Assembly (NCBI RefSeq): GCF_054482525.1
Contig: NZ_JBTHVG010000007.1
DNA length: 64,000 bases
Direction: 5' to 3' (one strand)
From: a plasmid
Position 1 is the first letter of the stretch. Every line of letters starts with the position of its first letter. Shown piece after piece: positions 330 to 24,774 of this stretch. Under the pieces are notes generated by a model that made no database searches, was not told the origin of the DNA, and saw nothing but the letters and a program-made list of their open reading frames with translations. A program made the position numbers and the translations under genes.

Positions 330-484
330 ACTTTCGCCTTCATGATCTGCAACGAGTTGATCAATAATAAGCGAAATTCGATAACGAAATTCGATATAAA
401 TCTAGAAAAAAATACCTCTATGTGTACTACGCAGTTTTAGCTGTGGCTTTCACAGGAGCACGCTTACTTACGGCTTAGCGTGCT

Positions 485-688: not shown

Positions 689-815
689 TCGCTCCCCTGG
701 CGCGGTATGAACCGCCGCCTCATAGTGCAGTTTGATCCTGACGAGCCCAGCATGTCTGCGCCCACCTTCGCGGAACCTGACCAGGGTCCGCTAGCGGGCG
801 GCCGGAAGGTGAATG

Positions 816-1655: not shown

Positions 1656-1996
1656 GGCGTCGGCCTCCGCAGCGACTTCCACGATGGGGATCGGGCGAGC
1701 AAAAAGGCAGCAATTATGAGCCCCATACCTACAAAGCCCCACGCATCAAGCTTTTGCCCATGAAGCAACCAGGCAATGGCTGTAATTATGACGACGCCGA
1801 GTCCCGACCAGACTGCATAAGCAACACCGACAGGGATGGATTTCAGAACCAGAGAAAGAAAATAAAATGCGATGCCATAACCGATTATGACAACGGCGGA
1901 AGGGGCAAGCTTAGTAAAGCCCTCGCTAGATTTTAATGCGGATGTTGCGATTACTTCGCCAACTATTGCGATAACAAGAAAAAGCCAGCCTTTCAT
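1649..1996 (-). CDS. qacEdelta1: QacEdelta1 small multidrug resistance efflux protein
   Basis: 115-aa [30 protein letters not shown]...; position immediately upstream of sul1. Confidence 0.9.
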
Positions 1997-2201
1997 GATA
2001 TATCTCCCAATTTGTGTAGGGCTTATTATGCACGCTTAAAAATAATAAAAGCAGACTTGACCTGATAGTTTGGCTGTGAGCAATTATGTGCTTAGTGCAT
2101 CTAACGCATAGTTGAGCGGCGGGCGCAGCCCGTCCGCTTGAACGCCGAGTTAGGCATCAGATGCCCTCGGCGCGGGTCGATGCACTTTTCGCACATGCCG
2201 C

Positions 2202-2990: not shown

Positions 2991-3120
2991 GATGCCTAAC
3001 GTTAAGTTCAGCGGCAGCTTTTAAGTTGCGGCTTTGTGGAATACTTTTGCGCAGCAAAACCACAAAGACGCGACTTAAAAGCTGTCCAAGGAGCGAAGCG
3101 ACTGGTGCTGCAACGCATTG

Positions 3121-3594
3121 TTAGCCTTTTTTCCAAATCTGGTATGTATAATTTATATTAGACATAAAAAACTGTTCAAAAACCAAATTGAAATTCTCAG
3201 GCATTATAGGGAATTTGATATCACCTTCGACTTCAACGTGAACAGTAGACAAATGAATTATATCTGCTTTTTCAATAAGGCTATTATAGATTTGACCCCC
3301 GCCAGAGACATATACATGATCTGTAACTTTTGATAGCTCTTTCAAAGCATTTTCTATTGAAGGAAAAACTAGGACGTTTTCATTTGAGCTTGAAATTCCG
3401 TTCTTTGACACTACTGCATATTTGCGATTTGGAAGAACACCCATAGAGTCAAATGTTTTTCTTCCGACAAGGAGCCATTGATTATATGTGAGCGCTTTAA
3501 AGAGTAGTTGCTCACCTTTTACTGACCACGGGATATCAGGACCACTACCGATTACGCCATTTTCTGACACTGCAGAAATCAATGATATTTTCAA
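3121..3594 (-). CDS. dfrA: Trimethoprim-resistant dihydrofolate reductase DfrA (dfrA1-like family; allele not determined, possibly dfrA27-like)
   Basis: 157 codons from a TTG start preceded by AAGGGAG; product [48 protein letters not shown]... typical of dfrA1-family; first cassette next to attI1. Confidence 0.85.
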
Positions 3595-3751
3595 TTTAAC
3601 TCCCTTAATGGCTAACTTTGTTTTAGGGCGACTGCCCTGCTGCGTAACATCGTTGCTGCTCCATAACATCAAACATCGACCCACGGCGTAACGCGCTTGC
3701 TGCTTGGATGCCCGAGGCATAGACTGTACAAAAAAACAGTCATAACAAGCC

Positions 3752-4765
3752 ATGAAAACCGCCACTGCGCCGTTACCACCGCTGCGTTCGGTCAAGGTTC
3801 TGGACCAGTTGCGTGAGCGCATACGCTACTTGCATTACAGTTTACGAACCGAACAGGCTTATGTCCACTGGGTTCGTGCCTTCATCCGTTTCCACGGTGT
3901 GCGTCACCCGGCAACCTTGGGCAGCAGCGAAGTCGAGGCATTTCTGTCCTGGCTGGCGAACGAGCGCAAGGTTTCGGTCTCCACGCATCGTCAGGCATTG
4001 GCGGCCTTGCTGTTCTTCTACGGCAAGGTGCTGTGCACGGATCTGCCCTGGCTTCAGGAGATCGGAAGACCTCGGCCGTCGCGGCGCTTGCCGGTGGTGC
4101 TGACCCCGGATGAAGTGGTTCGCATCCTCGGTTTTCTGGAAGGCGAGCATCGTTTGTTCGCCCAGCTTCTGTATGGAACGGGCATGCGGATCAGTGAGGG
4201 TTTGCAACTGCGGGTCAAGGATCTGGATTTCGATCACGGCACGATCATCGTGCGGGAGGGCAAGGGCTCCAAGGATCGGGCCTTGATGTTACCCGAGAGC
4301 TTGGCACCCAGCCTGCGCGAGCAGCTGTCGCGTGCACGGGCATGGTGGCTGAAGGACCAGGCCGAGGGCCGCAGCGGCGTTGCGCTTCCCGACGCCCTTG
4401 AGCGGAAGTATCCGCGCGCCGGGCATTCCTGGCCGTGGTTCTGGGTTTTTGCGCAGCACACGCATTCGACCGATCCACGGAGCGGTGTCGTGCGTCGCCA
4501 TCACATGTATGACCAGACCTTTCAGCGCGCCTTCAAACGTGCCGTAGAACAAGCAGGCATCACGAAGCCCGCCACACCGCACACCCTCCGCCACTCGTTC
4601 GCGACGGCCTTGCTCCGCAGCGGTTACGACATTCGAACTGTGCAGGATCTGCTCGGCCATTCCGACGTCTCTACGACGATGATTTACACGCATGTGCTGA
4701 AAGTTGGCGGTGCCGGAGTGCGCTCACCGCTTGATGCGCTGCCGCCCCTCACTAGTGAGAGGTAG
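3752..4765 (+). CDS. intI1: Class 1 integron integrase IntI1
   Basis: 337-aa [53 protein letters not shown]..., tyrosine recombinase motifs (HTLRHSFAT...[15 protein letters not shown]). Confidence 0.95.
3839..3867 (-). promoter_or_regulatory. Integron cassette promoter Pc (TGGACA - 17 bp - TAAACT, the hybrid PcH1 configuration) inside the 5' end of intI1
   Basis: Minus-strand -35 TGGACA (3862-3867) and -10 TAAACT (3839-3844) with 17-bp spacer, directed into the cassette array. Confidence 0.6.
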
Positions 4766-4942
4766 GGCAGCGCAAGTCAATCCTGGCGGATTCACTACCC
4801 CTGCGCGAAGGCCATCGGTGCCGCATCGAACGGCCGGTTGCGGAAAGTCCTCCCTGCGTCCGCTGATGGCCGGCAGCAGCCCGTCGTTGCCTGATGGATC
4901 CAACCCCTCCGCTGCTATAGTGCAGTCGGCTTCTGACGTTCA

Positions 4943-4967
4943 GTGCAGCCGTCTTCTGAAAACGACA
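4943..4967. repeat. IRi, 25-bp terminal inverted repeat at the intI1 end of the class 1 integron
   Basis: Sequence gtgcagccgtcttctgaaaacgaca is the complement of TGTCGTTTTCAGAAGACGGCTGCAC. Confidence 0.75.
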
Positions 4968-5318
4968 ATGGAGGTGGTAGCCGAGGGTGTGGAAACACCC
5001 GACTGCCTTGCGTGGTTGCGGCAGGCGGGTTGCGACACGGTGCAGGGTTTCCTGTTCGCCAGGCCGATGCCGGCGGCGGCCTTCGTCGGCTTCGTCAACC
5101 AATGGAGGAACACCACCATGAACGCCAATGAACCGAGCACCAGTTGCTGCGTGTGCTGCAAGGAAATCCCGCTCGATGCCGCCTTCACGCCGGAAGGGGC
5201 CGAGTACGTGGAGCATTTCTGCGGGCTGGAGTGCTATCAGCGCTTCCAGGCGCGGGCCAGCACTGCGACCGAAACCAGCGTCAAACCGGACGCTTGTGAT
5301 TCGCCGCCGTCAGGTTGA
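4968..5318 (+). CDS. tnpM: TnpM (C-terminal remnant of urf2, EAL-domain protein) of Tn21
   Basis: 116-aa ORF starting immediately after IRi: [42 protein letters not shown]...; Tn21 backbone context. Confidence 0.7.
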
Positions 5319-5443
5319 GGCATACCCTAACCTGATGTCAGATGCCATGTGTAAATTGCGTCAGGATAGGATTGAATTTTGAATTTATTGACATATCTCG
5401 TTGAAGGTCATAGAGTCTTCCCTGACATTTTGCAGGGAATTCC

Positions 5444-5601
5444 ATGACTGGACAGCGCATTGGGTATATCAGGGTCAGCACCTTCGACCAGAACCCGGAA
5501 CGGCAACTGGAAGGCGTCAAGGTTGATCGCGCTTTTAGCGACAAGGCATCCGGCAAGGATGTCAAGCGTCCGCAACTGGAAGCGCTGATAAGCTTCGCCC
5601 G
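5444..5601 (+). pseudogene. tnpR: Tn21 resolvase tnpR, 5' fragment truncated by IS26
   Basis: MTGQRIGYIRVSTFDQNPERQLEGVKVDRAFSDKASGKDVKRPQLEALISFAR then the IS26 inverted repeat; serine recombinase N-terminus. Confidence 0.8.
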
Positions 5602-6421
5602 GGCACTGTTGCAAAGTTAGCGATGAGGCAGCCTTTTGTCTTATTCAAAGGCCTTACATTTCAAAAACTCTGCTTACCAGGCGCATTTCGCCCAGGGGAT
5701 CACCATAATAAAATGCTGAGGTCTGGCCTTTGCGTAGTGCACGCATCACCTCAATACCTTTGATGGTGGCGTAAGCCGTCTTCATGGATTTAAATCCCAG
5801 CGTGGCGTTGATTATCCGTTTCAGTTTGCCATGATCGCATTCAATCACGTTGTTCCGGTACTTAATCTGTCGGTGTTCAACGTCAGACGGGCACCGGCCT
5901 TCGCGTTTGAGCAGAGCAAGCGCGCGACCATAGGCGGGCGCTTTATCCGTGTTGATGAATCGTGGGATCTGCCACTTCTTCACGTTGTTGAGGATTTTAC
6001 CCAGAAACCGGTATGCAGCTTTGCTGTTACGACGGGAGGAGAGATAAAAATCGACAGTGCGGCCCCGGCTGTCGACGGCCCGGTACAGATACGCCCAGCG
6101 GCCATTGACCTTCACGTAGGTTTCATCCATGTGCCACGGGCAAAGATCGGAAGGGTTACGCCAGTACCAGCGCAGCCGTTTTTCCATTTCAGGCGCATAA
6201 CGCTGAACCCAGCGGTAAATCGTGGAGTGATCGACATTCACTCCGCGTTCAGCCAGCATCTCCTGCAGCTCACGGTAACTGATGCCGTATTTGCAGTACC
6301 AGCGTACGGCCCACAGAATGATGTCACGCTGAAAATGCCGGCCTTTGAATGGGTTCATGTGCAGCTCCATCAGCAAAAGGGGATGATAAGTTTATCACCA
6401 CCGACTATTTGCAACAGTGCC
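5602..6421 (-). mobile_element. IS26 copy 1 (820 bp, IS6 family)
   Basis: Bounded by GGCACTGTTGCAAA terminal inverted repeats; encodes Tnp26. Confidence 0.95.
5654..6358 (-). CDS. tnpA: IS26 transposase Tnp26 (copy 1; carries a Thr where copies 2 and 3 have Ala in ...RKGQ[T/A]SAFYY...)
   Basis: MNPFKGRHFQRDIILWAVRWYCKYGISYRELQEMLAERGVNVDHSTIYRWVQRYAPEMEK... Confidence 0.95.
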   Translation of the reverse strand: MNPFKGRHFQRDIILWAVRWYCKYGISYRELQEMLAERGVNVDHSTIYRWVQRYAPEMEKRLRWYWRNPSDLCPWHMDETYVKVNGRWAYLYRAVDSRGRTVDFYLSSRRNSKAAYRFLGKILNNVKKWQIPRFINTDKAPAYGRALALLKREGRCPSDVEHRQIKYRNNVIECDHGKLKRIINATLGFKSMKTAYATIKGIEVMRALRKGQTSAFYYGDPLGEMRLVSRVFEM

Positions 6422-7713
6422 GTCGTAAACGGTCGAGTTTCATGATCCGTTTGAGGTGGGCGAAAAGCATCTCCACCTTCTTTCGTTCGCAGCGAGAGAC
6501 GAGGTACTCCGGTGTCTTGGCGATGCGTCGAGCCACGTCGCGGGCAGCCTCATGGATGCTGCGGACGATCTTCCGATTCGGCGTGTTGGGGCAGCATTTC
6601 GCTTTCAACGGGCAGGTGGCGCAGTCGGTTTGGCTGGAGCGGTAAATGACGGTTTTGGCCTTAGTTACCCGCGACCTTTGCTGGGTGAAGGCGCGCCATT
6701 CACTGCGTAGCGGTTTGCCGGCTGGGCAGCGATATTCATTGGCGTCCTGACTCCAGTGAAAGTCGTTACTGGAGAGGCTGTCGTCCTTGCGCTCGGTCTT
6801 GTCCCACACCGGCACATGCGGTTCGATGTCCTTTTCTTCGACCATCCAGGCCAGCATCGGGGCGGTGCCATAAGCGGTATCGCCGATAAGGCGTTCCGGT
6901 GTGAGATCGAACTGCGCCTCGACACGCTCGACCATCGTCCTAGTCGAATCGACTTCGGCGGTACGGTGCGCCGGGGTAGCTTCCACGTCCATGATCACAC
7001 CGTGCTCAGTGTCGATCAGGTAATTCGTGGAGTAGGCAAAAAAGGCCGGGCCACCTGGCGCTGCTGTCCAACGGGACTGAGGATCAGTGAGCGAAATTTT
7101 CTTGGGAAGAGCCTCAGCCAGCGCCTCTTCATCAAGGGCTTCGAGGTACTCGCGCACTGCGCGGCTGCTGAGCTTTGGATCGTTCCAATCGACCTCATCT
7201 CCCGCCACCCCACGTTGCCGGCTGGCATCCGCCTTAATGATGCTGGCGTCGACGGCGAAACCTTCACCCTTGACTAGGCCGGCTGCCATGCAGCGCCGCA
7301 GCACCTCATTGAATAACCAGCGGAATAGATCGCTGTCACGAAAACGCCCATGGCGATTCTTCGAGAAGGTCGAGTGATTGGGGACTTCGTCTTCCAGACC
7401 CAACCGGCAGAACCAGCGATAGGCCAGGTTCAGGTGCACCTCTTCGCACAATCGCCGCTCGGAACGAATGCCATAGCAAGTAGCCGACGACCAGCATGCG
7501 CACCATCAACTCCGGGTCAATCGAGGGACGCCCGATGGGGCTATAGAAATCTGCCAGGTAGGCACGTAGATCACTGAGATCCAAGCACTGGTCGATGCTG
7601 CGCAGGAGATGTTGGGCCGGGACGTGATCTTCCAGATTGAACGAGTAGAACAGGCGCTGCTGTCCTCCCGGTAACTGTCCCATCATGCTGTTCGCCCCCA
7701 CGCTCGCTGACAA
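6422..7713 (-). pseudogene. IS5/IS1182-family transposase, frameshifted and 3'-truncated by IS26
   Basis: Two overlapping minus-strand frames (N-part MSASVGANSMMGQLPGGQQRLFYSFNLEDHVPAQHLLRSIDQ...; C-part with DDE-like region) that together resemble one transposase; reading frame runs into the IS26 end. Confidence 0.55.
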
Positions 7714-7800
7714 AGCAATTTTGCCAACGGCATGGGGAGGCCGCTACTTTTTCAACAGAATCGGCCGCACACAGCCATTCGGCTCAACAGAACCCTGCCT

Positions 7801-8958
7801 TTACCCCACCAAACTCCGGAAACTCGCCCGGTAGTCCGTCGGCTTGAGATGCACATGTTGGCTGAGGTCGCCGGGTAGCGTGAACAGGCGCGGACCGTCC
7901 CGAAACTGGAACACGCGATACAGATGGAATTGATCGCCCGCCTCCTTGGAGAATTCGAGTTCGTTGTGGCTGACCAAGAAAGACGAGCCTACCCCGCCAT
8001 TGGTGGTTTTCACCTCGATGAAGCGCTCATGGGCGTCCTCTTCGAACGACAGGATGTCGAACCCCGCACCGTCTCCCTGGGTGTCGGACACCCAATCCAG
8101 CCGCTGAAAAAGCTCTGGGTGGCCGAGCTCGGTCAGGCGTTGCTGTTCGTAGCCAATCACCCACTGCTCCCCTGCCCGGCCCAGCTTGCGGTTGGCTTCA
8201 TCGCGAGCGGCATAATCGAACTTTCGCGGTAGGCGTTGCCGTAGAGATGCCGGGGTACGCACAAGCACTTCACGGGCGGGTGGTTCTACCAAAGCCGCTC
8301 GGTAGGTTTTGTCACCCGGAAGTTTTACCTCCTCCAGGGCATCGACAAGAGCGCCGACCGTCTGCTGATGTTCCAGAACGTAGGCGTGTACGGATTTACG
8401 CAGCAGCAGTTGGCTGTTGCCGCGTGGCTTGTAGCCGTTGATATAGGGCAGGCCCAGGGCATCGAGTACGGCGCTAATGTTCTGGTGCTTGAGCTCGACT
8501 GAAGACTTGCTGCGACCGTTCAGCAGTTGGCGCAGTGCCTGGTTGTGCTCGGACTTGTTGTACGGCTCCCCAGCCGCCTCGGCACGCAGCATGTCGAAAT
8601 AGTCTTCGACCGTGGCCAGGACCTCTTCTTCGGACCAGTCTTCGCCGATGCGAATGATGCGAAACCCGAGCCGCGTCAGCGCCGGAACGACGGTCGCCTC
8701 GCCACCGGAGAAGCTGTCAGCAGTGAGCGGGCCCTGCTCGGGAAATTGCTTGCCGAAGGCCACACCGGCGATGGCCTTGGAATCGCAATCGGTGCCGGTC
8801 TTCGGATCACGTACCAGGAAGTCGCGGGACTTGCCGTAGCCGTGGCGCGCCAGGAATTTCGTGCGGCCCAGTTGCACGAACTCATCGATGGCAGCCTGCA
8901 CGGCGGCGGGGCTTCGAAGCTGGGAGAGTTGAGACACAGGGTCCTTCCTTACTGTCAT
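7801..8958 (-). CDS. Putative restriction-endonuclease-like protein: N-terminal DNA-binding-like domain plus C-terminal DUF3883/NOV-C-like PD-(D/E)xK nuclease domain (function inferred)
   Basis: 385 aa from ATG at 8958 (MTVRKDPVSQ...); C-terminal region ...GAGFDILSFEEDAHERFIEVKTTNGG...HLYRVFQF resembles a D...E.K nuclease core. The ORF track extends to 9114 but the upstream part overlaps a separate small ORF. Confidence 0.45.
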   Translation of the reverse strand: MTVRKDPVSQLSQLRSPAAVQAAIDEFVQLGRTKFLARHGYGKSRDFLVRDPKTGTDCDSKAIAGVAFGKQFPEQGPLTADSFSGGEATVVPALTRLGFRIIRIGEDWSEEEVLATVEDYFDMLRAEAAGEPYNKSEHNQALRQLLNGRSKSSVELKHQNISAVLDALGLPYINGYKPRGNSQLLLRKSVHAYVLEHQQTVGALVDALEEVKLPGDKTYRAALVEPPAREVLVRTPASLRQRLPRKFDYAARDEANRKLGRAGEQWVIGYEQQRLTELGHPELFQRLDWVSDTQGDGAGFDILSFEEDAHERFIEVKTTNGGVGSSFLVSHNELEFSKEAGDQFHLYRVFQFRDGPRLFTLPGDLSQHVHLKPTDYRASFRSLVG

Positions 8959-8987
8959 GGTGTGCCGGGAACCGCCGAGCCACGAGA

Positions 8988-9233
8988 TTATGAGTAGCCC
9001 CTGAACAGAAACGTCACGATAAAAGCCGTGAACGCCACCAGGCCCATTAAATCCCTTGCGTATTTGCAGCCCGTGCTGTCCAAACCTGTACCAGGTCCGA
9101 TCAACACGCTCCAACCATTGAGGTACGAAAACACCGCCTGACCGAACAAAAAATGCGTGATAGCCGCCGCAGCCATGACGCCGGAATCGTCAGACAGGCT
9201 GTAGCTGTTGACCATTGCCCTGTACGCCTGCAT
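8988..9233 (-). CDS. Small hydrophobic protein (81 aa), possibly co-transcribed with the downstream nuclease-like gene
   Basis: ORF MQAYRAMVNSY...GLVAFTAFIVTFLFRGYS with hydrophobic stretches; ends about 30 bp before the ATG of the next gene on the same strand. Confidence 0.25.
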   Translation of the reverse strand: MQAYRAMVNSYSLSDDSGVMAAAAITHFLFGQAVFSYLNGWSVLIGPGTGLDSTGCKYARDLMGLVAFTAFIVTFLFRGYS

Positions 9234-9519
9234 CTGAAATGGCTATTGCCCTGATGGGAGCCGGCTTTTCAGCCACCGACACCAGCGATGCCGTCAATAT
9301 TCTTTACCCGATAACCATGACCGTACAAGCTAACAAGGCCTGGCAAGCCAGCGGACTTAAAAAGTCTTTTTTTCTACCATCCCACAAAAAAGTTCGTGGT
9401 GGAGAAAAGATAAGCTATGCAAGGCTTTAGGAGACGTGGTTTTTCAGGATGACGAAGAACGATTCGGCGCTAGGTGCAACATAGGTGCATCGCACGAGCG
9501 CTAGGAACGGCGAAAAAAG

Positions 9520-9552
9520 GCGGACGTGGCGAAATCGGTAGACGCAGCAGAC
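9520..9552 (+). tRNA. tRNA-Leu(UAA) exon 1 fragment (positions 1-32: acceptor 5' strand, D-arm, anticodon-stem 5' strand), cut by IS26
   Basis: GCGGACG-UG-GCGAAAUCGGUAGACGC-A-GCAGA-C has a tRNA-Leu-like D-arm; acceptor strand is exactly complementary to CGUCCGC at 12929-12935 on the minus strand. Confidence 0.6.
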
Positions 9553-10372
9553 GGCACTGTTGCAAATAGTCGGTGGTGATAAACTTATCATCCCCTTTTG
9601 CTGATGGAGCTGCACATGAACCCATTCAAAGGCCGGCATTTTCAGCGTGACATCATTCTGTGGGCCGTACGCTGGTACTGCAAATACGGCATCAGTTACC
9701 GTGAGCTGCAGGAGATGCTGGCTGAACGCGGAGTGAATGTCGATCACTCCACGATTTACCGCTGGGTTCAGCGTTATGCGCCTGAAATGGAAAAACGGCT
9801 GCGCTGGTACTGGCGTAACCCTTCCGATCTTTGCCCGTGGCACATGGATGAAACCTACGTGAAGGTCAATGGCCGCTGGGCGTATCTGTACCGGGCCGTC
9901 GACAGCCGGGGCCGCACTGTCGATTTTTATCTCTCCTCCCGTCGTAACAGCAAAGCTGCATACCGGTTTCTGGGTAAAATCCTCAACAACGTGAAGAAGT
10001 GGCAGATCCCACGATTCATCAACACGGATAAAGCGCCCGCCTATGGTCGCGCGCTTGCTCTGCTCAAACGCGAAGGCCGGTGCCCGTCTGACGTTGAACA
10101 CCGACAGATTAAGTACCGGAACAACGTGATTGAATGCGATCATGGCAAACTGAAACGGATAATCAACGCCACGCTGGGATTTAAATCCATGAAGACGGCT
10201 TACGCCACCATCAAAGGTATTGAGGTGATGCGTGCACTACGCAAAGGCCAGGCCTCAGCATTTTATTATGGTGATCCCCTGGGCGAAATGCGCCTGGTAA
10301 GCAGAGTTTTTGAAATGTAAGGCCTTTGAATAAGACAAAAGGCTGCCTCATCGCTAACTTTGCAACAGTGCC
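9553..10372 (+). mobile_element. IS26 copy 2 (820 bp)
   Basis: GGCACTGTTGCAAA inverted repeats; Tnp26 ORF on plus strand; 8 bp to its left (9545-9552) are CAGCAGAC. Confidence 0.95.
9616..10320 (+). CDS. tnpA: IS26 transposase Tnp26 (copy 2)
   Basis: Translation identical to copy 3. Confidence 0.95.
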   Translation: MNPFKGRHFQRDIILWAVRWYCKYGISYRELQEMLAERGVNVDHSTIYRWVQRYAPEMEKRLRWYWRNPSDLCPWHMDETYVKVNGRWAYLYRAVDSRGRTVDFYLSSRRNSKAAYRFLGKILNNVKKWQIPRFINTDKAPAYGRALALLKREGRCPSDVEHRQIKYRNNVIECDHGKLKRIINATLGFKSMKTAYATIKGIEVMRALRKGQASAFYYGDPLGEMRLVSRVFEM

Positions 10373-11381
10373 GGACTTTTCAAGTCTCGGAAGGTTTCTT
10401 CAATCTGCATTCGCTTCGAATAGATATTAACAAGTTGTTTGGGTGTTCGAATTTCAACAGGTAAGTTAGTTGCTAGAACCCATGGCTCCTTTGCCGACGC
10501 TGAGTAGATTTTAGGTGACGGGTGGTGACAATGAGTCCGTGTCGAGCGCTGATTTTTTCGGCCTTTAGAGCGAGATTTATACAATAGAATTTGGCATGAG
10601 ATTGGATTGCTTTTAGTCAGCCTCTTATAGCCTAAAGTCTTTGAGTGACTAGATGACATATCATGTAAGTTGCTGATAGGTTTCCAGTTTTCCGCTCCTA
10701 GGTCTGCATATTGTACTTTTCCTCTTACTCGACTTAACCAGTACCAACCCAGCTTCTCAACGGATTTATACCATGGCACTTTAAAGCCAGCATCACTGAC
10801 AATGAGCGGTGTGGTGTTACTCGGTAGAATGCTCGCAAGGTCGGCTAGAAATTGGTCATGAGCTTTCTTTGAACATTGCTCTGAAAGCGGGAACGCTTTC
10901 TCATAAAGAGTAACAGAACGACCGTGTAGTGCGACTGAAGCTCGCAATACCATAAGTCGTTTTTGCTCACGAATATCAGACCAGTCAACAAGTACAATGG
11001 GCATCGTATTGCCCGAACAGATAAAGCTAGCATGCCAACGGTATACAGCGAGTCGCTCTTTGTGGAGGTGACGATTACCTAACAATCGGTCGATTCGTTT
11101 GATGTTATGTTTTGTTCTCGCTTTGGTTGGCAGGTTACGGCCAAGTTCGGTAAGAGTGAGAGTTTTACAGTCAAGTAATGCGTGGCAAGCCAACGTTAAG
11201 CTGTTGAGTCGTTTTAAGTGTAATTCGGGGCAGAATTGGTAAAGAGAGTCGTGTAAAATATCGAGTTCGCACATCTTGTTGTCTGATTATTGATTTTTCG
11301 CGAAACCATTTGATCATATGACAAGATGTGTATCCACCTTAACTTAATGATTTTTACCAAAATCATTAGGGGATTCATCAG
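10373..11381 (-). mobile_element. Truncated IS10 (outer end plus 5' two-thirds of the transposase gene), cut by IS26
   Basis: Outer end ...CTGATGAATCCCCTAATGATTTTGGTAAAAATCATTAAG (complement at 11343-11381); partial transposase MCELDILHDSLYQFCPELHLKRLNSLTLACHALLDCKTLTLTELGRNLPTKARTKHNIKRIDRLLGNRHLHKERLAVYRWH... (IS4 family, IS10-like) whose frame runs into IS26. Confidence 0.85.
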
Positions 11382-11416
11382 CGTATAGTGTTTTGCAGTT
11401 TAGAGGAGATATCGCG

Positions 11417-12277
11417 ATGCATACGCGGAAGGCAATAACGGAGGCGCTTCAAAAACTCGGAGTCCAAACCGGTGACCTCTTGATGGTGCATGCCTCACTT
11501 AAAGCGATTGGTCCGGTCGAAGGAGGAGCGGAGACGGTCGTTGCCGCGTTACGCTCCGCGGTTGGGCCGACTGGCACTGTGATGGGATACGCGTCGTGGG
11601 ACCGATCACCCTACGAGGAGACTCTGAATGGCGCTCGGCTGGATGACGAAGCCCGCCGTACCTGGCTGCCGTTCGATCCCGCAACAGCCGGGACTTACCG
11701 TGGGTTCGGCCTGCTGAATCAATTTCTGGTTCAAGCCCCCGGCGCGCGGCGCAGCGCGCACCCCGATGCATCGATGGTCGCGGTTGGTCCGCTGGCTGAA
11801 ACGCTGACGGAGCCTCACGAACTCGGTCACGCCTTGGGGGAAGGATCGCCCGTCGAGCGGTTCGTTCGCCTTGGCGGGAAGGCCCTGCTGTTGGGTGCGC
11901 CGCTAAACTCCGTTACCGCATTGCACTACGCCGAGGCGGTTGCCGATATCCCCAACAAACGGTGGGTGACGTATGAGATGCCGATGCTTGGAAGAGACGG
12001 TGAAGTCGCCTGGAAAACGGCATCGGATTACGATTCAAACGGCATTCTCGATTGCTTTGCTATCGAAGGAAAGCCGGATGCGGTTGAAACTATAGCAAAT
12101 GCTTACGTGAAGCTCGGTCGCCATCGAGAAGGTGTCGTGGGCTTTGCTCAGTGCTACCTGTTCGACGCGCAGGACATCGTGACGTTCGGCGTCACCTATC
12201 TTGAGAAGCATTTCGGAACCACTCCGATCGTGCCTCCGCACGAGGCCGTCGAGCGCTCTTGCGAGCCTTCAGGTTAG
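11417..12277 (+). CDS. aac(3)-II: Aminoglycoside N(3)-acetyltransferase AAC(3)-II (gentamicin/tobramycin resistance)
   Basis: 286-aa product MHTRKAITEALQKLGVQTGDLLMVHASLKAIGPVEGGAETVVAALRSAVGPTGTVMGYASWDRSPYEETLNGARLDDEARRTW... Confidence 0.95.
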   Translation: MHTRKAITEALQKLGVQTGDLLMVHASLKAIGPVEGGAETVVAALRSAVGPTGTVMGYASWDRSPYEETLNGARLDDEARRTWLPFDPATAGTYRGFGLLNQFLVQAPGARRSAHPDASMVAVGPLAETLTEPHELGHALGEGSPVERFVRLGGKALLLGAPLNSVTALHYAEAVADIPNKRWVTYEMPMLGRDGEVAWKTASDYDSNGILDCFAIEGKPDAVETIANAYVKLGRHREGVVGFAQCYLFDAQDIVTFGVTYLEKHFGTTPIVPPHEAVERSCEPSG

Positions 12278-12289
12278 AGGCCGTCGACA

Positions 12290-12832
12290 ATGATAATCTG
12301 GATCAACGGACCTTTCGGCGCCGGAAAGACGACGCTCGCTAAGCGGCTGCGCGATCGGCGTTCCAAATCGCTGATCTTTGACCCCGAGGAAATCGGGTTC
12401 GTGGTGAAAGAAACGGTCCCCATGCCAGCGAGCGGAGACTATCAGGATCTCCCCTTGTGGAGGGGACTTACGATCGCGGCGGTCAGGGAGATTCGAAGGA
12501 ATTACTCGCAGGACATCATCATCCCAATGACGCTCGTGCACCCGGACTATCTGACTGAGATACTCGACGGGGTAAGGCGGATCGACGATCAGCTGCTGCA
12601 CATCTTTCTGACGCTCAACGAGGACCTATTGCGTCACCGGATCGCGAACCAGACCATGCATCCTGACCCGAATCGAAATGCGGAGATTCGAGAGTGGCGA
12701 TTAGCGAATGTCGCCCGATGCTTGGCCGCAAGGGAACGGCTTCCATGCACAACCCGTGTTCTCGATAGTGGTGCACACACCAGCGATGAACTCGCAGCGA
12801 TGGTGCTCGACGGAATCGATGGGCGCACCTGA
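12290..12832 (+). CDS. tmrB: TmrB-like ATP-binding protein (tunicamycin resistance family)
   Basis: 180-aa ORF with P-loop MIIWINGPFGAGKTTLAKRL; known aac(3)-II/tmrB pairing. Confidence 0.85.
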   Translation: MIIWINGPFGAGKTTLAKRLRDRRSKSLIFDPEEIGFVVKETVPMPASGDYQDLPLWRGLTIAAVREIRRNYSQDIIIPMTLVHPDYLTEILDGVRRIDDQLLHIFLTLNEDLLRHRIANQTMHPDPNRNAEIREWRLANVARCLAARERLPCTTRVLDSGAHTSDELAAMVLDGIDGRT

Positions 12833-12924
12833 TCGCCTTCGACGCCTGCGCAAAGCGTAGCGCGAGGGTGGCGGGCTCACGACCAAACGCCCAGAGGTCG
12901 ATCATCGCAGGGATGTTTGGCTTT

Positions 12925-12975
12925 GTGGTGCGGACGACGGGACTCGAACCCGTACTCTCACAGAGAAGCAGATTT
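12925..12975 (-). tRNA. tRNA-Leu(UAA) exon 2 (A35 to CCA: anticodon AA, anticodon-stem 3' strand, long variable arm, T-arm, acceptor 3' strand)
   Basis: Minus-strand RNA AAAA-UCUGC-UUCUCUGUGAGAGU-ACGGGUUCGAGUCCCGU-CGUCCGC-A-CCA; stems pair with the exon 1 fragment at 9520-9552. Confidence 0.6.
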
Positions 12976-13189
12976 TCGTACCACCTCGACTTTCGCCGCC
13001 GTCTGATGACGTTCGTGGTCTGGACTGTCCCTTCGCCATTGCCCGAAGGCTTTAGGCGCCGCCCGTCCAGTCTCTACACCTTCCCCCGAAGGGGCTTGGC
13101 TCGGGATTGGCTTAGGGTATTGCCCGTTAGCGTTCCCCGACTTTGAGCGGTTCTACTCCGCGGATTTCCCCGCGGGCACTCCAATTTTA
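12976..13189 (-). ncRNA. Group I (tRNA-Leu-type) intron, about 214 nt, inserted between U34 and A35 of tRNA-Leu(UAA)
   Basis: Follows exon ...CUU; ends with G before exon 2; contains elements recalled from cyanobacterial tRNA-Leu and Azoarcus tRNA-Ile introns (CCCGAGCCAAGCC; GAAGGUGUAGAGACUGGACGGG...CCUAA). Confidence 0.6.
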
Positions 13190-13199
13190 AAGTCTGCTG

Positions 13200-14019
13200 G
13201 GCACTGTTGCAAAGTTAGCGATGAGGCAGCCTTTTGTCTTATTCAAAGGCCTTACATTTCAAAAACTCTGCTTACCAGGCGCATTTCGCCCAGGGGATCA
13301 CCATAATAAAATGCTGAGGCCTGGCCTTTGCGTAGTGCACGCATCACCTCAATACCTTTGATGGTGGCGTAAGCCGTCTTCATGGATTTAAATCCCAGCG
13401 TGGCGTTGATTATCCGTTTCAGTTTGCCATGATCGCATTCAATCACGTTGTTCCGGTACTTAATCTGTCGGTGTTCAACGTCAGACGGGCACCGGCCTTC
13501 GCGTTTGAGCAGAGCAAGCGCGCGACCATAGGCGGGCGCTTTATCCGTGTTGATGAATCGTGGGATCTGCCACTTCTTCACGTTGTTGAGGATTTTACCC
13601 AGAAACCGGTATGCAGCTTTGCTGTTACGACGGGAGGAGAGATAAAAATCGACAGTGCGGCCCCGGCTGTCGACGGCCCGGTACAGATACGCCCAGCGGC
13701 CATTGACCTTCACGTAGGTTTCATCCATGTGCCACGGGCAAAGATCGGAAGGGTTACGCCAGTACCAGCGCAGCCGTTTTTCCATTTCAGGCGCATAACG
13801 CTGAACCCAGCGGTAAATCGTGGAGTGATCGACATTCACTCCGCGTTCAGCCAGCATCTCCTGCAGCTCACGGTAACTGATGCCGTATTTGCAGTACCAG
13901 CGTACGGCCCACAGAATGATGTCACGCTGAAAATGCCGGCCTTTGAATGGGTTCATGTGCAGCTCCATCAGCAAAAGGGGATGATAAGTTTATCACCACC
14001 GACTATTTGCAACAGTGCC
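13200..14019 (-). mobile_element. IS26 copy 3 (820 bp)
   Basis: GGCACTGTTGCAAA inverted repeats; 8 bp to its left (13192-13199) are GTCTGCTG, the reverse complement of CAGCAGAC. Confidence 0.95.
13252..13956 (-). CDS. tnpA: IS26 transposase Tnp26 (copy 3)
   Basis: Translation identical to copy 2. Confidence 0.95.
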   Translation of the reverse strand: MNPFKGRHFQRDIILWAVRWYCKYGISYRELQEMLAERGVNVDHSTIYRWVQRYAPEMEKRLRWYWRNPSDLCPWHMDETYVKVNGRWAYLYRAVDSRGRTVDFYLSSRRNSKAAYRFLGKILNNVKKWQIPRFINTDKAPAYGRALALLKREGRCPSDVEHRQIKYRNNVIECDHGKLKRIINATLGFKSMKTAYATIKGIEVMRALRKGQASAFYYGDPLGEMRLVSRVFEM

Positions 14020-15095
<1,076 letters not shown>

Positions 15096-15251
15096 TGAGA
15101 GCAGAGATAGCGCTGATGTCCGGCGGTGCTTTTGCCGTTACGCACCACCCCGTCAGTAGCTGAACAGGAGGGACAGCTGATAGAAACAGAAGCCACTGGA
15201 GCACCTCAAAAACACCATCATACACTAAATCAGTAAGTTGGCAGCATCACC
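15096..15251 (-). mobile_element. IS1 fragment (left inverted repeat plus first ~33 codons of insA), interrupted by the Tn2/Tn3 IRR
   Basis: Complement of GGTGATGCTGCCAACTTACTGATTTAGTGTATGATGGTGTTTTTGAGGTGCTCCAGTGGCTTCTGTTTCTATCAGCTGTCCCTCC...; ends where the Tn3-family IR begins. Confidence 0.85.
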
Positions 15252-16535
15252 TCCCTGTTTAAAATCATAATTTGGTTGTTCTGTTCTTGAGTTATTAAGT
15301 AGAGTTCTTATCAGTGTTTGCCAAGCATGATTGATAAATTTATTTTCTGATTCTTTAAAATATCGTCTGATTAAAGCACATAAATCTTCGACACTTTTCT
15401 GACGAGCGCTAGCTGCCCAACGGCCCCCTTCGGTTTGCACCATTGAACGTTGTACACTGTCTCCTAACTGAGCGATAAATTTCTGTTCATCGTCAAGTTG
15501 CATGTTTTCATTTATGATTAATTCATACAAAGCAAGAAAAACAGCTTGATAGTAACGAGGACATTCTTGAGATGAAGATGCATTGCCCAGAATGTGTGAT
15601 CTAAAGTTCAAATTATTTGCATCAAATAATTTTTGAATCATCTCATAAACGAAGAGGTAATTATTGACAATTTTATCTGCACCATTTGTCTGAATGTAAT
15701 TCTCTAATTGAGTTCGTGTATGGATTGCATGACTCGTCGAACCTTCACCGTAAAATGTATCGAGCGATGTTGATCCTGATGTTGGCTTATCATCTAAAAA
15801 TATATAGCCCAAGATATTTGCAACTAACTCTTCATCGTCAGAGTCTCTAATGCTAGGCCTACTAATGATATGATTTCTAATATAGAAATGATTGTCTATA
15901 TTTATTCCATAATCGAGTCCATCATTGCAAATTGATATGTTATGTATTTTATTCAGTCCCATTATATCGCTATGTGTAGTATCTCCTCTTATAATTGTCG
16001 ATATTTTCCTTACTAACTCTGAAAAATTACTAACGCACCCCGCACTTCGTAGTTCTTGTTTTGATAAAATTTTACCATTGGAATTTATGCGTCGAAACAC
16101 TTCGTCAATGTGGTCCTCTGTTGAAGAGTATTCAGATATAGCAAATCTATAGCGAGCAATTAATGTAGAACTTTCGCGGGATAGCACTGGCTCTTTTTGT
16201 TGAAGTTTACCACTGTCTTTTAGTTGTTTTGTTAATGCAATGGCATCTAAATTAAAGTATTTACCATTTAATGAAAATCGCTGCTCAATAAAACTCATTA
16301 AAGCTTCTAGTCTTTGCATTCCATCAAGGATTTCTCTTTTGTTGTCAATGGAAACAAACAATAGCAAAGGGATAGGGTATTGCTGAGTCATTGATGAAAT
16401 CAGTGCTGTTTTCTCTTCGAGGGACCATACTAATTTTCTTTGGTATCTTCGATTTATAATTAATTTATCATCCAGATACCACTCGTATAATTCTTCTGCT
16501 GTCTTGGAGTCAATATCTAAGTTTTCATTAGCCAT
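15225..16535 (-). CDS. DUF262 (ParB-like nuclease/NTPase, GmrSD-family N-terminal domain) protein, C-terminus replaced by IS1 sequence
   Basis: 436-aa ORF with DUF262-like motifs (RRYQRKLVWSLEEK...ILDGMQRLEAL); about 33% GC; last 8 codons and stop (GDAANLLI*) are encoded by the IS1 inverted repeat. Confidence 0.5.
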   Translation of the reverse strand: MANENLDIDSKTAEELYEWYLDDKLIINRRYQRKLVWSLEEKTALISSMTQQYPIPLLLFVSIDNKREILDGMQRLEALMSFIEQRFSLNGKYFNLDAIALTKQLKDSGKLQQKEPVLSRESSTLIARYRFAISEYSSTEDHIDEVFRRINSNGKILSKQELRSAGCVSNFSELVRKISTIIRGDTTHSDIMGLNKIHNISICNDGLDYGINIDNHFYIRNHIISRPSIRDSDDEELVANILGYIFLDDKPTSGSTSLDTFYGEGSTSHAIHTRTQLENYIQTNGADKIVNNYLFVYEMIQKLFDANNLNFRSHILGNASSSQECPRYYQAVFLALYELIINENMQLDDEQKFIAQLGDSVQRSMVQTEGGRWAASARQKSVEDLCALIRRYFKESENKFINHAWQTLIRTLLNNSRTEQPNYDFKQGGDAANLLI

Positions 16536-16819: not shown

Positions 16820-17152
16820 TCAAGTCAGAATAGTGGACAGGCGGCCAAGAACTTCGTTCATGATAGTCTCCGGAACCCGTTCGAGTCGTTTTCCGCCCCG
16901 TGCTTTCATATCAATTGTCCGGGGTTGATCGCAACGTACAACACCTGTGGTACGTATGCCAACACCATCCAACGACACCGCAAAGCCGGCAGTGCGGGCA
17001 AAATTGCCTCCGCTGGTTACGGGCACAACAACAGGCAGGCGGGTCACGCGATTAAAGGCCGCCGGTGTGACAATCAGCACCGGCCGCGTTCCCTGCTGCT
17101 CATGACCTGCGGTAGGATCAAGCGAGACAAGCCAGATTTCCCCTCTTTCCAT
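16820..17152 (-). CDS. pemK: PemK (MazF/Kid-family endoribonuclease toxin)
   Basis: MERGEIWLVSLDPTAGHEQQGTRPVLIVTPAAFNRVTRLPVVVPVTSGGNFARTAGFAVSL... Confidence 0.9.
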   Translation of the reverse strand: MERGEIWLVSLDPTAGHEQQGTRPVLIVTPAAFNRVTRLPVVVPVTSGGNFARTAGFAVSLDGVGIRTTGVVRCDQPRTIDMKARGGKRLERVPETIMNEVLGRLSTILT

Positions 17153-17153
17153 G

Positions 17154-17411
17154 TCAGATTTCCTCCTGACCAGTCGCCGGTGCATCCAGCCATTCTCGTT
17201 CTTCAGCTGATATTTCAGCATTCGGATCACACTGTGCCAGTAGCTCAGCCAGTGAATATTGCGGGCGTCTGTACGGCTCAACAATCAGCCGGCCATTATC
17301 AATGACCATGCCAACTTCATTATCTGTGCCCAGAGACAGCGCATTCAGCAGTGCCGGTGGGACGGTCAGCATAACTGAGCCGCCAACCCTCTTCAGTCGG
17401 GTGGTATGCAT
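17154..17411 (-). CDS. pemI: PemI antitoxin
   Basis: 85-aa ORF MHTTRLKRVGGSVMLTVPPALLNALSLGTDNEVGMVIDNGRLIVEPY... directly upstream of pemK. Confidence 0.85.
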   Translation of the reverse strand: MHTTRLKRVGGSVMLTVPPALLNALSLGTDNEVGMVIDNGRLIVEPYRRPQYSLAELLAQCDPNAEISAEEREWLDAPATGQEEI

Positions 17412-17503: not shown

Positions 17504-18157
17504 TCAACCAAACAGTAAACCCAGCGTGGTTGCTTCCATATGCAGCAATACCGGCAGCAGCAGGCCACCACTTCTGATCCTGGCCACTGATGTAATCAAC
17601 CCCACCAGGAACAGTTCTGCCAGTGTCAGCAGGTTCTGATACTGGCTGTGCGCGGCGACGAACAACAACGACGTTATCAGCGCCCCCAGCCACATCGTCC
17701 AGCAGTACCGTGAACGGAAGACGTTCAGCATAATCCCCCGGAACAGCGTTTCCTCATTCAACGGGGCAAGGATAAAGATGGTCAGCAACGTCAGGATCAC
17801 GTCAGGTATGGACTTATCGGCAAAAAGTTTCGTCATAAATGGCTCAGCAGGCAGAGCCAGCGCCTTACCGAGCAGAAATACACCGACATACACCACGGCC
17901 ATCGCACCGACCAGCCACGGTACGCCAACGTTGCGCAGCTGACCAACGACCGGTAGCGGAGCTATCCAACGGCGGTATACCAGGAAAACACACAGCAGGT
18001 ACATCAGAACAGTACCATGACTGAAGAACAAATAGTTTTTTCCTGATCCATAAAGCAGAACGGCCTGCTCCATGACAAATCTGGCTCCCCAACTAATGCC
18101 CCATGCAGCCAGCATAACCAGCATAAACTGCAGATATTGATTACGTGTTTGAATCAT
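17504..18157 (-). CDS. CPBP-family intramembrane metalloprotease (CAAX protease-like)
   Basis: 217-aa multi-pass membrane ORF with EE..FRG and ..H....N-like motifs (NEETLFRGIMLNVF; FVAAHS). Confidence 0.5.
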   Translation of the reverse strand: MIQTRNQYLQFMLVMLAAWGISWGARFVMEQAVLLYGSGKNYLFFSHGTVLMYLLCVFLVYRRWIAPLPVVGQLRNVGVPWLVGAMAVVYVGVFLLGKALALPAEPFMTKLFADKSIPDVILTLLTIFILAPLNEETLFRGIMLNVFRSRYCWTMWLGALITSLLFVAAHSQYQNLLTLAELFLVGLITSVARIRSGGLLLPVLLHMEATTLGLLFG

Positions 18158-21474: not shown

Positions 21475-22097
21475 GCAGACCTCACGAGTTAATGGATTAA
21501 CGAGTGGGGTCTTCGCATTTCTGGTACCTGCGTCTTGCCTGAACCAGAAAGGCTCAAACACCCGCCGCGATAATACCACATTCCCTGTTGCTGACTATTA
21601 CCCCCATTTGCCTGTTTTTGTTACAAAAACGCCGGGAGCGGGGGAAAACTTACTTTTTCCCGTTTCCGGGGGGGACAACTGAGCATTGCGAACGCGTCAG
21701 CTACGATGTTCCGGTGATTGCTGATCAGCCCCTGTTGTATTCATAAACTAATTAACATTCATTCTGTCTGGTGCATAAATCTGCCCGTGAACATCTGCAG
21801 ACAATACCGGCCATGAAAAGATAAATAATACCAGTGGAATATATTTCCTCATGTTATTCTCCATATCAGATAAATGGCACCTGTATTTCAGCCCCCCTGA
21901 ATATCGCAGCACACATTGAATAAGACCTTATTTTGTGAAATTAATCACAAAATATAAAATCGCGACTTAATACGGAAAAAACTCTGTGCTACTCAGAACT
22001 GGCCGGTCATACTGCCCGACCGGATATTAAAAAAAGCAAATCTCATAAACTCCTTTCAGCCTTCTGACTCCTGGAGTAATGAAGGCTGCTTTTTTCG

Positions 22098-22310
22098 TTA
22101 CACCCTTCCCCGGCAGCGCCGGTGGCAGTGTTCAGCCCTTTTCCGGGCAAACTGTTGCCAGTCTGTCCGGGGAGCTATGCAGGCAGCCCGTCGCCATGCT
22201 TCTGCCGCTTCCATCCAGCGTCCACTGACCTCCAGAATAACGGCCCGCCCGCCGGCACGCTGGTAACGCCAGACCTGACCGTTCCGTGAACTGTTTCTGA
22301 ATCCATTCAT
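22098..22310 (-). CDS. Conserved F-plasmid hypothetical protein downstream of finO
   Basis: 70-aa ORF in the finO-repA intergenic backbone; no recognised function. Confidence 0.3.
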   Translation of the reverse strand: MNGFRNSSRNGQVWRYQRAGGRAVILEVSGRWMEAAEAWRRAACIAPRTDWQQFARKRAEHCHRRCRGRV

Positions 22311-22445
22311 TTTTCTGCTCCTCCCTTTTAGTCGTCAGTATTATTGTGGTAAATAATTCAGTGGACTGGCTTCCTTTCGGGTACGGAAGTTATTTCCTTT
22401 TAAGCCTTATTGTTTCAGCCTCCCCGGTTTCCGGGGAGGCTTTTT

Positions 22446-23006
22446 TTATTTCCCATCAAGCACGGCCTGAAGTTCTGCCTTTGTCCGGTTCTGGCGGCGA
22501 ATTTTCTCCAAACGCCCTGCCGCATACGCTTCCTCCTCCTGAGAAATATGCTCCGTCACATACCCTTCCGTGTCATACCGGCAGGCACCGGCTTTCATGG
22601 CACACAGATAGCTTTCTGAACGGGTGATGGCCTTCAGCGCCCGGCGCAGTTTTTTATGCGAGAGCGGGATATTCCGCTGCGCCACGTCTTCCAGTAACAC
22701 GTCCCGGATACCGCAGGCCAGAAGCCGGGGCGTGTTACCGTCAAACAATCCCGGCCACCAGGGTTTCAGAGTGTTCACCGCCTCATCCAGCGAGGGCAGC
22801 GTCAGATAAATGGACAGCGCCTGTCTGGCCTGTGCTTTCTTCGCCGCCAGCTCTGCTTCCCGGGCAGCCTTCTCCGCCAGTTTCTGCTTTTTCACCTTCC
22901 ATTTTGGTGGCGTGGTGACATTGATGATGGTTTTCCGGCTCCGGGTCGGTGTTTCCCCTTCCGTTTTCCGTTTCAGTGTCAGTACCGGTCGTTTCTGCTC
23001 TGTCAT
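22446..23006 (-). CDS. finO: Fertility inhibition protein FinO (RNA chaperone)
   Basis: 186-aa [67 protein letters not shown]... Confidence 0.9.
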
Positions 23007-23108
23007 GATTGCCCTGACCTTTGTGAAAATATGTCCTCCAGGTCGTTGAAACTACTCACTATGATATTAAGCTGACCTCAACGACCTCTGACATATTAAT
23101 ACCGACAA

Positions 23109-23969
23109 TTAAAGATGTTTTTTAAACCATTGCGTCTGTACTGCCGCCACACGTTCAAAAAACGCGCCTTTATAAATATCATAATGGCATGCGTCAGCTT
23201 CCTCGTATAATTCCTTAGTACCAGAAGCAACAGCATCATATAAGGCTCTTCCCTGTTCTGGTGGATTAACACTATCCTGGCCGGCAATAACAACCAAAAC
23301 TGGGCACTGTACTTTGGCTGCGCTCTCTGCCGGTTTATATTGCAACGTCTCCATAACCGTAAGGAAAGGTATTTTTATATCCATTTCAGGATACTGACCT
23401 TTTACCTTCTCGAAGAATACCTTTGATTCATTATCACTCAGTACCCGGGTAACCCCCACAAACATCTCTTTCCCGGTATTTTTCTTCTTTTCTGCCATTT
23501 TATTCAGCGTGGACAGAAAAGAAGCTTTCTCCAGTTCATTCATTTCTCCGGTAACCAGAACCTCACCGTCAGCAAAAGCCAGCTGGCTGACAATACATTT
23601 TACGCGTTGGTCCTGCGCAGCTGCACTGAAGACATGCCCCCCTCCCAGCGATGTTCCCCATAACCCAATACGCTGATTATCAATACATACCTGCTTTTCT
23701 GCCCAATTGATAACTGAAATAATATCTTCGGTCTGCATTGCCGGAACCAGACGACCTCGTTCCCCTTCACTCTCACCGAATCCACGATAATCAAAAGTAA
23801 TCGTTGCAAACCCGGCTTCTGTAAACGCATTCGCAAAGGAAGGCAGCAGAACATTCCGGATACCGCAAAATCCATGGCATAAGAGAATCAAAGGATGTTT
23901 TATATTTCCTTCCGGGACACGAAATGTCAGGGCAATACCTTCAGGGAGTTTGTGATCCGTAATTTTCAT
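23109..23969 (-). CDS. Alpha/beta-hydrolase (dienelactone hydrolase-like) between traX and finO
   Basis: 286-aa ORF with GxSxG nucleophile elbow (GLWGTSLGGG) and C-terminal D/H residues. Confidence 0.55.
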   Translation of the reverse strand: MKITDHKLPEGIALTFRVPEGNIKHPLILLCHGFCGIRNVLLPSFANAFTEAGFATITFDYRGFGESEGERGRLVPAMQTEDIISVINWAEKQVCIDNQRIGLWGTSLGGGHVFSAAAQDQRVKCIVSQLAFADGEVLVTGEMNELEKASFLSTLNKMAEKKKNTGKEMFVGVTRVLSDNESKVFFEKVKGQYPEMDIKIPFLTVMETLQYKPAESAAKVQCPVLVVIAGQDSVNPPEQGRALYDAVASGTKELYEEADACHYDIYKGAFFERVAAVQTQWFKKHL

Positions 23970-24027
23970 AAATATCCTGTGTTATGTTGTTTATTAATAA
24001 GCAGAATCAGCGCCAGCATCATACCAG

Positions 24028-24774
24028 TCACACAGCCAGAACGCCCAGCACAGTAAGATGACAGGCATAGAACGTCGGGAAAAAATCCCCGTACCAGAAA
24101 CGGGGTAGTGATTTCCCTGTACAGGACACCAGACCAACAGTCAGCACCGTCATCACAAGGCCGGCCACCGCCGCTGCATCACTGGTGGCAAGGTTAAGCG
24201 CCGGAATAACAGCCAGCAGGCAGGCGACCAGCGCCAGACGTTCCATTCTGTCTTCCGCCCGGTACAGCCTGTGGCTGACTGCCAGCATCAGCAGCCCGGC
24301 AATGCCGTAACTGGTGCCGGAGAAAGGCAACCACATTGCCAGAAGCAACATGGTCTCTGCGGAACGCCACCAGGTGCGCGTTTCACACCATGTCAGCACC
24401 TGTGCCGCAACTGCAAAGGCAAACAGGATATTCCCCTCATACCAGGGAAAGCCGGCCAGATAATATGCGAACTGGGCAATCACCGCCCATCCCCACAGCC
24501 GGTTAATGGCCTCCTGCCGGATATGCGTATGACGGGACAGATTCAGCCCCCACACCAGGGCAAACAGCGGAAAGGCCCCACGCCCGACCAGAAACATCCA
24601 CGACTGGTCCAGATGCAGAATGCGGTTTGCATGGTCCAGAACCATCAGCACCAGTGCCACCGTTTTGATGATATCCCGCTGTCCGGGTGACCAGACCAGC
24701 AACGACTGCAACCAGGTATCGGTCCGGGCAGCCAGTGAATCATTACGTGTTGTGTTCGTGTTATCCGTTGTCAT
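24028..24774 (-). CDS. traX: TraX, F-pilin N-acetylase
   Basis: 248-aa polytopic membrane ORF; position after traI. Confidence 0.85.
   Translation of the reverse strand: MTTDNTNTTRNDSLAARTDTWLQSLLVWSPGQRDIIKTVALVLMVLDHANRILHLDQSWMFLVGRGAFPLFALVWGLNLSRHTHIRQEAINRLWGWAVIAQFAYYLAGFPWYEGNILFAFAVAAQVLTWCETRTWWRSAETMLLLAMWLPFSGTSYGIAGLLMLAVSHRLYRAEDRMERLALVACLLAVIPALNLATSDAAAVAGLVMTVLTVGLVSCTGKSLPRFWYGDFFPTFYACHLTVLGVLAV

Follow-up and report, generated by a model that had tools for sequence, protein, structure and literature searches.

The window, a 64,000-nt stretch of a plasmid (contig NZ_JBTHVG010000007.1, assembly GCF_054482525.1), carries on its minus strand a 436-aa ORF with an ATG start (15225..16535). 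The ORF lies directly downstream of the toxin-antitoxin pair pemIK and ends inside a remnant of IS1, which in turn is cut by the end of a Tn2/Tn3-family transposon. These features are listed below together with their counterparts in plasmid R100 (NC_002134.1) and in an intact allele of the gene on plasmid pUMNK88_K88.

14088..14948, plus strand: blaTEM-1 of the Tn2 fragment
15058..15095, plus strand: 38-bp repeat, which from its sequence we take to be the terminal inverted repeat of a Tn2/Tn3-family transposon; it cuts IS1, and collinearity with R100 ends at 15096
15096..15251, minus strand: 156-bp IS1 remnant, equivalent to IS1b of R100 by alignment
15225..15251, minus strand: first 27 nt of the IS1 left inverted repeat, encoding GDAANLLI (codons 429-436) and the stop
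15252..15260, minus strand: one copy of the 9-bp target-site duplication AAACAGGGA, gene nt 1276-1284; the other copy lies at R100 21993-22001, adjoining IS1a and the 3' part of the gene
15252..16535, minus strand: native 5' part of the gene, 1284 nt, codons 1-428, with the same sequence as R100 92230-93513 and as nt 1-1284 of the intact pUMNK88_K88 gene
15258..15281, minus strand: putative Schlafen catalytic motif E419-QPNY-D424-F-K426, of the form Ex4(E/D)xK (family alignment and AlphaFold2 model; motif after PMC13056530)
15291..16028, minus strand: predicted helical middle domain, aa ~170-415 (PADLOC match to the NsnA profile, AlphaFold2 secondary structure, PMC12065111)
16041..16460, minus strand: ParB-like DUF262 (GmrSD_N) domain, aa 26-165 (Pfam, invariant columns, motifs after PMC12065111)
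16536..16819, minus strand: 284-bp spacer between pemK and the ORF, presumed native promoter region
16820..17411, minus strand: toxin-antitoxin pair pemK (16820-17152) and pemI (17154-17411), directly upstream of the ORF on the same strand, conserved neighbours

The native part of the ORF has a G+C content of 34.3%, as against 52.0% for the window and 55% for the pemIK pair, and the gene stands beside pemIK as a foreign insert. A sigma-70 consensus scan of the 284-bp pemK-ORF spacer found no site, and the promoter and terminator scan did not rise above shuffled expectation. Further upstream, a gene for a CPBP-family intramembrane protease (17504-18157, minus strand), which had no match among the NCBIfam profiles, lies between repA and pemI and is conserved in every IncF plasmid examined.

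The N-terminal part of the ORF matches the Pfam family GmrSD_N/DUF262 (PF03235) at aa 26-165 (E=1.1e-19, 71.8 bits, cut-off 33.2) and contains the motif ILDGMQRLEAL, in which DGMQR occupies aa 71-75. The motifs QRxxxW, DGxQR and FxxxN given for the DUF262 proteins NsnA, GmrSD and SspE (PMC12065111) are all kept in the window ORF (Q32-W37, D71-R75 and F147-N151) and are invariant in the family described below. The best PADLOC match of the ORF is NsnA (4e-22, aa 10-341, the profile being covered to position 323 of 385), followed by PD-T4-2_A (7e-19). NCBIfam profiles gave no match to the 436-aa protein, and Pfam at E<=1 found in it neither DUF1524/HNH nor any other nuclease domain. By analogy with such proteins, the helical middle domain is likely the DNA-binding partner of DUF262 (ParBDB-like).

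In alignments to intact alleles, homology stops at window position 15252; IS1 runs from 15251, with the terminal repeat GGTGATGCTGCCAACTTACTGATTTAG at the junction, down to 15096. It is cut at IS1 position 156, and the remainder of the element is replaced by the Tn3-family repeat and blaTEM-1. In plasmid L001 (NZ_CP025861) the IS1 and Tn2 segments are separated by 458 extra bp. Neither a 3' half of the gene nor any further IS1 copy is present in the 64-kb window.

What the gene looks like without IS1 is seen in WP_001262766.1, a 590-aa protein that is 100% identical to the window ORF over the shared part and continues 162 residues further, so that the window ORF corresponds to the 5' 73% of the intact gene. 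WP_001262766.1 is encoded on at least 146 PLSDB plasmids, always downstream of pemIK and on IncF backbones (for example NZ_CP096178 and pUMNK88_K88). Relatives in a large protein collection, with 40-90% identity and from Serratia, Pantoea, Cronobacter, Enterobacter, Vibrio, Aeromonas and Clostridium, are likewise consistently about 590 aa long. The earlier note, made from the letters of the window, had described a low-GC (~33%) gene next to pemIK with a DUF262 N-terminus bearing ILDGMQRLEAL, with no recognizable HNH/DUF1524 domain, and with its last eight codons and stop supplied by the left inverted repeat of an IS1 that had removed the native 3' end. All of this is borne out: the profile search upholds DUF262, and full-length homologues run on to about 590 aa instead of ending where the ORF ends, so the truncation stands.

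The lost part of the protein is not a DUF1524/HNH domain. In the intact allele, aa 420-573 match the Pfam family SLFN_AlbA_2 (PF04326) with 27.7 bits against a cut-off of 25.3; scores for this domain lie only just over the threshold (~25-29 bits). DUF1524 was not found by Pfam in the intact allele either. Among 59 diverse family members scanned, GmrSD_N was present in all 59 and SLFN_AlbA_2 in 56, and DUF1524 in none. Modelled with AlphaFold2 (pLDDT 85.8), the intact protein has an N-terminal α/β domain, a helical middle (~aa 170-415) and a C-terminal α/β domain (aa 419-590) whose predicted fold resembles the AlbA_2 domains of SAMD9, SLFN11, SLFN12 and SLFN5. Across the family E419, Q420, F425 and K426 do not vary, and at least 90% of the members have D424 and G428. 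This candidate catalytic motif of the Schlafen type, Ex4(E/D)xK (PMC13056530), lies on the β-strand that opens the C-terminal domain (E423-426 in the AF2 model). Because the C-terminus is of the SLFN_AlbA_2 type, no member has DUF1524 and the predicted fold resembles SAMD9 and SLFN proteins, the intact parent is, judged from its domain content, a DUF262-Schlafen gene of the pSlfn7 type, whose expected effector would be an RNase and not a modification-dependent DNase.

IS1 begins after G428, two residues past the strand with the Ex4DxK motif (E419-K426), and the break sits at the domain boundary of the AF2 model. Residues 429-590 of the intact protein (162 residues) are lost and replaced by eight IS1-encoded residues. 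Missing are thus 162 of the ~172 residues of the effector domain, and the motif strand is the only part of the nuclease domain that is left.

The junction itself is that of a well-known resistance plasmid. A 76-nt sequence across it is found with 100% identity in R100, where an identical 436-aa protein (WP_001262765.1, R100 92230-93540) abuts IS1b. The remaining gene segment, nt 1276-1773, is found at R100 21993-22490, where it abuts the right end of IS1a. Between the two gene halves R100 carries its 22.8-kb, IS1-bounded r-determinant with mer, Tn21 with In2 (aadA1, sul1) and catA1. The sequence AAACAGGGA is present at both R100 junctions: the left inverted repeat of IS1 abuts gene nt 1284 (as in the window) and the right inverted repeat abuts nt 1276 (in R100 and pTL-2). 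Transposition of IS1 is expected to leave a 9-bp target duplication. Since the 9-bp duplication is found at both junctions, the intact gene received either an IS1-bounded unit or one IS1 copy that was expanded afterwards, and the IS1 end next to the window ORF marks the edge of the R100 r-determinant.

The window is collinear with R100 89765-93669 at 99.46% identity, down to base 15096, and shares with the R100/NR1 r-determinant (Tn2670) the junction, the 436-aa ORF and the pemIK-repA backbone; the target duplication in R100 flanks the whole IS1-bounded unit. Unlike in R100, IS1b in the window is reduced to 156 bp through Tn2, and where R100 has its Tn21/mer content, the window has a region rich in IS26 that carries blaTEM-1, aac(3)-II and a dfrA-aadA-sul1 integron. 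Positions 1-14050 of the window form this IS26-rich multiresistance region, which also contains IS1182- and IS4-family transposase ORFs:

816-1742: sul1
2202-2990: aadA
3121-3822: dfrA
3752-4765: intI1
5654-6376, 9598-10320 and 13252-13974: three copies of IS26
7801-9114: a 437-aa ORF
11393-12277: aac(3)-II

The native DNA 3' of the intact gene (L013 6211-6776; R100 22491-24190) contains a degraded relE/parE-like toxin gene followed by stbAB/parMR. The original backbone order would therefore have been pemIK, the DUF262-Schlafen gene, the relE-like remnant and parMR. On chromosomes, homologues stand as single genes in the variable accessory slots of P2-like prophages: in Serratia between the portal gene and gpA, in Enterobacter and 28 E. 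coli chromosomes between gpV and gpS. These 28 E. coli chromosomes carry a 71%-identical full-length paralogue. These P2-like prophage slots are hotspots for anti-phage cargo. Full-length prophage homologues with 68-82% identity were located at L005 8001-9773, L008 8001-9776 and L017 6001-7776, and the prophage copies have ~35% GC inside flanks of ~55% GC. A Clostridium perfringens homologue with 43% identity (L010 2257-4218) lies ~4 kb from a gene for an AAA_21/SMC_N ATPase with a small partner ORF, which may represent a further defence system of that island.

Of 5,426 complete E. coli genomes, 823 contain at least a piece of the gene; the matches fall in 917 places, 861 of them on plasmids. 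The junction of gene nt 1284 with IS1 occurs in 416 of these genomes (~8%), and an uninterrupted insertion site in 103, always on a plasmid. The broken form therefore outnumbers the intact one by ~4:1 in E. coli and is found in about four in five genomes that retain the insertion site. In PLSDB, the junction is present in 434 plasmids of Escherichia, Salmonella, Shigella and Klebsiella. Nucleotides 1-1284 are fully kept in about 95% of the sampled junction-bearing copies, and the annotation of several plasmids treats the 3' half as an ORF. Other copies of the gene have been hit by IS3 and ISKpn26, and additional, independent plasmid-borne IS1 insertions were located at nt 1234 and at nt 1317-1326 (L014, L013). 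IS1 also interrupts 2 of the 28 E. coli chromosomal P2-prophage copies (NZ_CP031134.1 4867880-4870432 and NZ_CP195467.1 3152681-3155233). The AT-rich gene thus seems to be a recurrent target of IS1. N-terminally truncated alleles were found as well (P0008, 500 aa, 1685 member sequences; P0010, 336 aa, 1100 members). In these very common forms, foreign residues stand at the N-terminus and the first ~93-100 residues are missing; P0008 retains an intact Schlafen end and is annotated as 'AlbA family DNA-binding domain-containing protein'.

The window ORF is thus very probably the IS1-truncated front part of a DUF262-Schlafen defence gene that was split by insertion of the R100 r-determinant. A function of the intact gene is suggested by two bodies of work. 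In a survey of prokaryotic Schlafen proteins, DUF262 fusions made up 1.8% of 5,930 proteins, and one of them, EcoSlfn7 (DUF262-Slfn, E. coli UC4224), reduced plating efficiency for a wide variety of phages, for T7 by 538-fold (PMC13056530). The mechanism of the DUF262 fusions was not worked out in that study; phage-triggered cleavage of the tRNA anticodon arm, which needs the Ex4DxK residues, was worked out on RorSlfn5, a different fusion (PMC13056530). In GmrSD, SspE, DndB and NsnA, a ParB-type DUF262 domain and its helical partner are argued, in an analysis of Menshen, to form a DNA-sensing, NTP-dependent module (PMC12065111). By analogy, the intact gene would be a single-gene anti-phage system that occupied the IncFII backbone between pemIK and stbAB/parMR. 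Its DUF262 NTPase and helical domain (aa 1-~415) most likely sense a phage nucleic-acid cue, and sensing would activate the Schlafen/AlbA_2 RNase (aa ~416-590), by analogy with RorSlfn5 a tRNA-cutting enzyme, which would block translation. In an ancestor of R100, Tn2670 (mer/Tn21/In2/catA1) would have transposed into codon 426-428, duplicating 9 bp and splitting the gene. The pemK-proximal half now runs eight codons into the IS1 inverted repeat, up to the stop. A later insertion of Tn2 (blaTEM-1), during remodelling of the resistance region, shortened the IS1 of the window to 156 bp.

Because 162 of the ~172 effector-domain residues are gone, the window copy should in all likelihood have lost its defence activity. 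The remnant keeps the complete sensor module and, as the cut lies at a domain boundary of the model, could still fold. A stable protein with residual activity is possible for that reason and also because the ORF is open and full-length in nearly all junction copies. We nevertheless consider it improbable that the truncated protein is not dead but acts as a free sensor module that binds DNA, titrates the phage cue or, should these act as oligomers, poisons related full-length DUF262-Schlafen proteins of P2 prophages or co-resident plasmids. Such a role would fit the retention of the three DUF262 motifs and the whole middle domain, the position of the cut, and the existence of DUF262-only sensors as separate subunits in Menshen, and the 71%-identical paralogue in 28 E. 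coli chromosomes would be a potential partner. The ~95% of sampled junction copies that keep nt 1-1284 could also speak for it, but this conservation carries no weight: the junction arose only decades ago, too short a time for neutral decay to show (well under one neutral substitution per 1.3-kb copy over its age, by our own rough estimate), and the persistence of the truncated ORF therefore gives no sign of selection. Moreover, other copies carry further IS insertions and deletions, and no partner gene is linked. Quite unlikely is also the more specific case that a 436-aa sensor-only protein is expressed and active, for instance by silencing, as a dominant-negative or decoy, the related full-length DUF262-Schlafen defences of P2 prophages or incoming plasmids, or else as a ParB-like DNA-binding factor that benefits the plasmid.

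Very doubtful, in turn, is a decayed type IV restriction gene of the GmrSD/BrxU type, in which the DUF262 NTPase was once joined to a DUF1524/HNH DNase attacking modified phage DNA. The earlier note had proposed either such a gene or a truncated protein retaining only the NTP-binding module. The second description holds, the ORF being truncated to essentially the NTP-binding and sensor part, and the first fails. The DUF262 match, the RefSeq name 'GmrSD restriction endonuclease domain-containing protein' and a weak similarity in sequence and fold to BrxU (7p9k) are what one would expect of a type IV enzyme, but the BrxU similarity is restricted to the DUF262 part, and the C-terminus of the intact allele is SLFN_AlbA_2, a domain of 56 of the 59 members, with a predicted fold like that of SAMD9 and SLFN proteins. 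The DUF1524 part of this explanation is refuted, the domain being absent from the ORF, the intact allele and all 59 members. As the expected effector is an RNase, the restriction assay with glucosylated or hydroxymethylated phage DNA that had been suggested is not the relevant one. That the gene is a split but working system, with two halves on one plasmid that are expressed separately and reassemble, is hardly credible even though R100 retains both halves and several plasmids have an ORF annotation for the 3' half, for the window is without the 3' half, neither a separate start nor a separate promoter is evident for this half, and the catalytic strand and the rest of its fold would reside on different polypeptides.

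Read as a truncated DUF262-Schlafen gene, this common IncF ORF, labelled 'DUF262' or 'GmrSD restriction endonuclease domain-containing protein' in RefSeq, would be renamed as the sensor half of an anti-phage gene of the Schlafen type. A plasmid-borne phage-defence gene would then have been destroyed when the resistance determinant of R100 first inserted, so that resistance was probably gained at the expense of defence. The intact and the effector-less alleles form a natural pair for studying how DUF262 might control a Schlafen nuclease. The remnant is old and widespread and has been in the databases since R100 was sequenced; the defence family was described in 2026. A literature search found no paper linking the DUF262 gene next to pemK, or the boundary of the R100 r-determinant, to Schlafen defence. 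The window copy is a truncated derivative of a DUF262-Schlafen gene and no new kind of system, and the insight is at the level of annotation.

Among known systems, the truncated product resembles the stand-alone DUF262 sensor subunits NsnA of Menshen and PD-T4-2_A, whereas the natural form here is a fusion protein. Neither the ATPase NsnB nor the effector NsnC, nor any other conserved partner, is encoded next to the gene in the plasmids or prophages examined, and since these partners are lacking the ORF is not a member of Menshen or PD-T4-2. With GmrSD, BrxU and SspE, which combine DUF262 with DUF1524, the family shares DUF262 with its DGxQR motif, but DUF1524/HNH is in no family member here; the effector is of the Schlafen type and, by analogy, its target would be RNA rather than modified DNA. 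The closest counterpart is pSlfn7/EcoSlfn7 (Perez Taboada et al., Nat Microbiol 2026, PMC13056530), with which the intact allele shares the N-terminal DUF262 and the C-terminal Slfn/AlbA_2 domain with Ex4(E/D)xK. The likeness is one of domain architecture. Strain UC4224 is neither among the 28 records of chromosomal homologues nor among ~85 of the 105 records of intact plasmids, and on the basis of these hit lists EcoSlfn7 may be only a distant relative of the intact allele. As for pSlfn7, the intact gene is single and located in mobile defence hotspots of Enterobacterales, namely the P2-prophage slots and the IncF backbone next to pemIK; the window copy differs from pSlfn7 in lacking the Slfn fold beyond its first strand.
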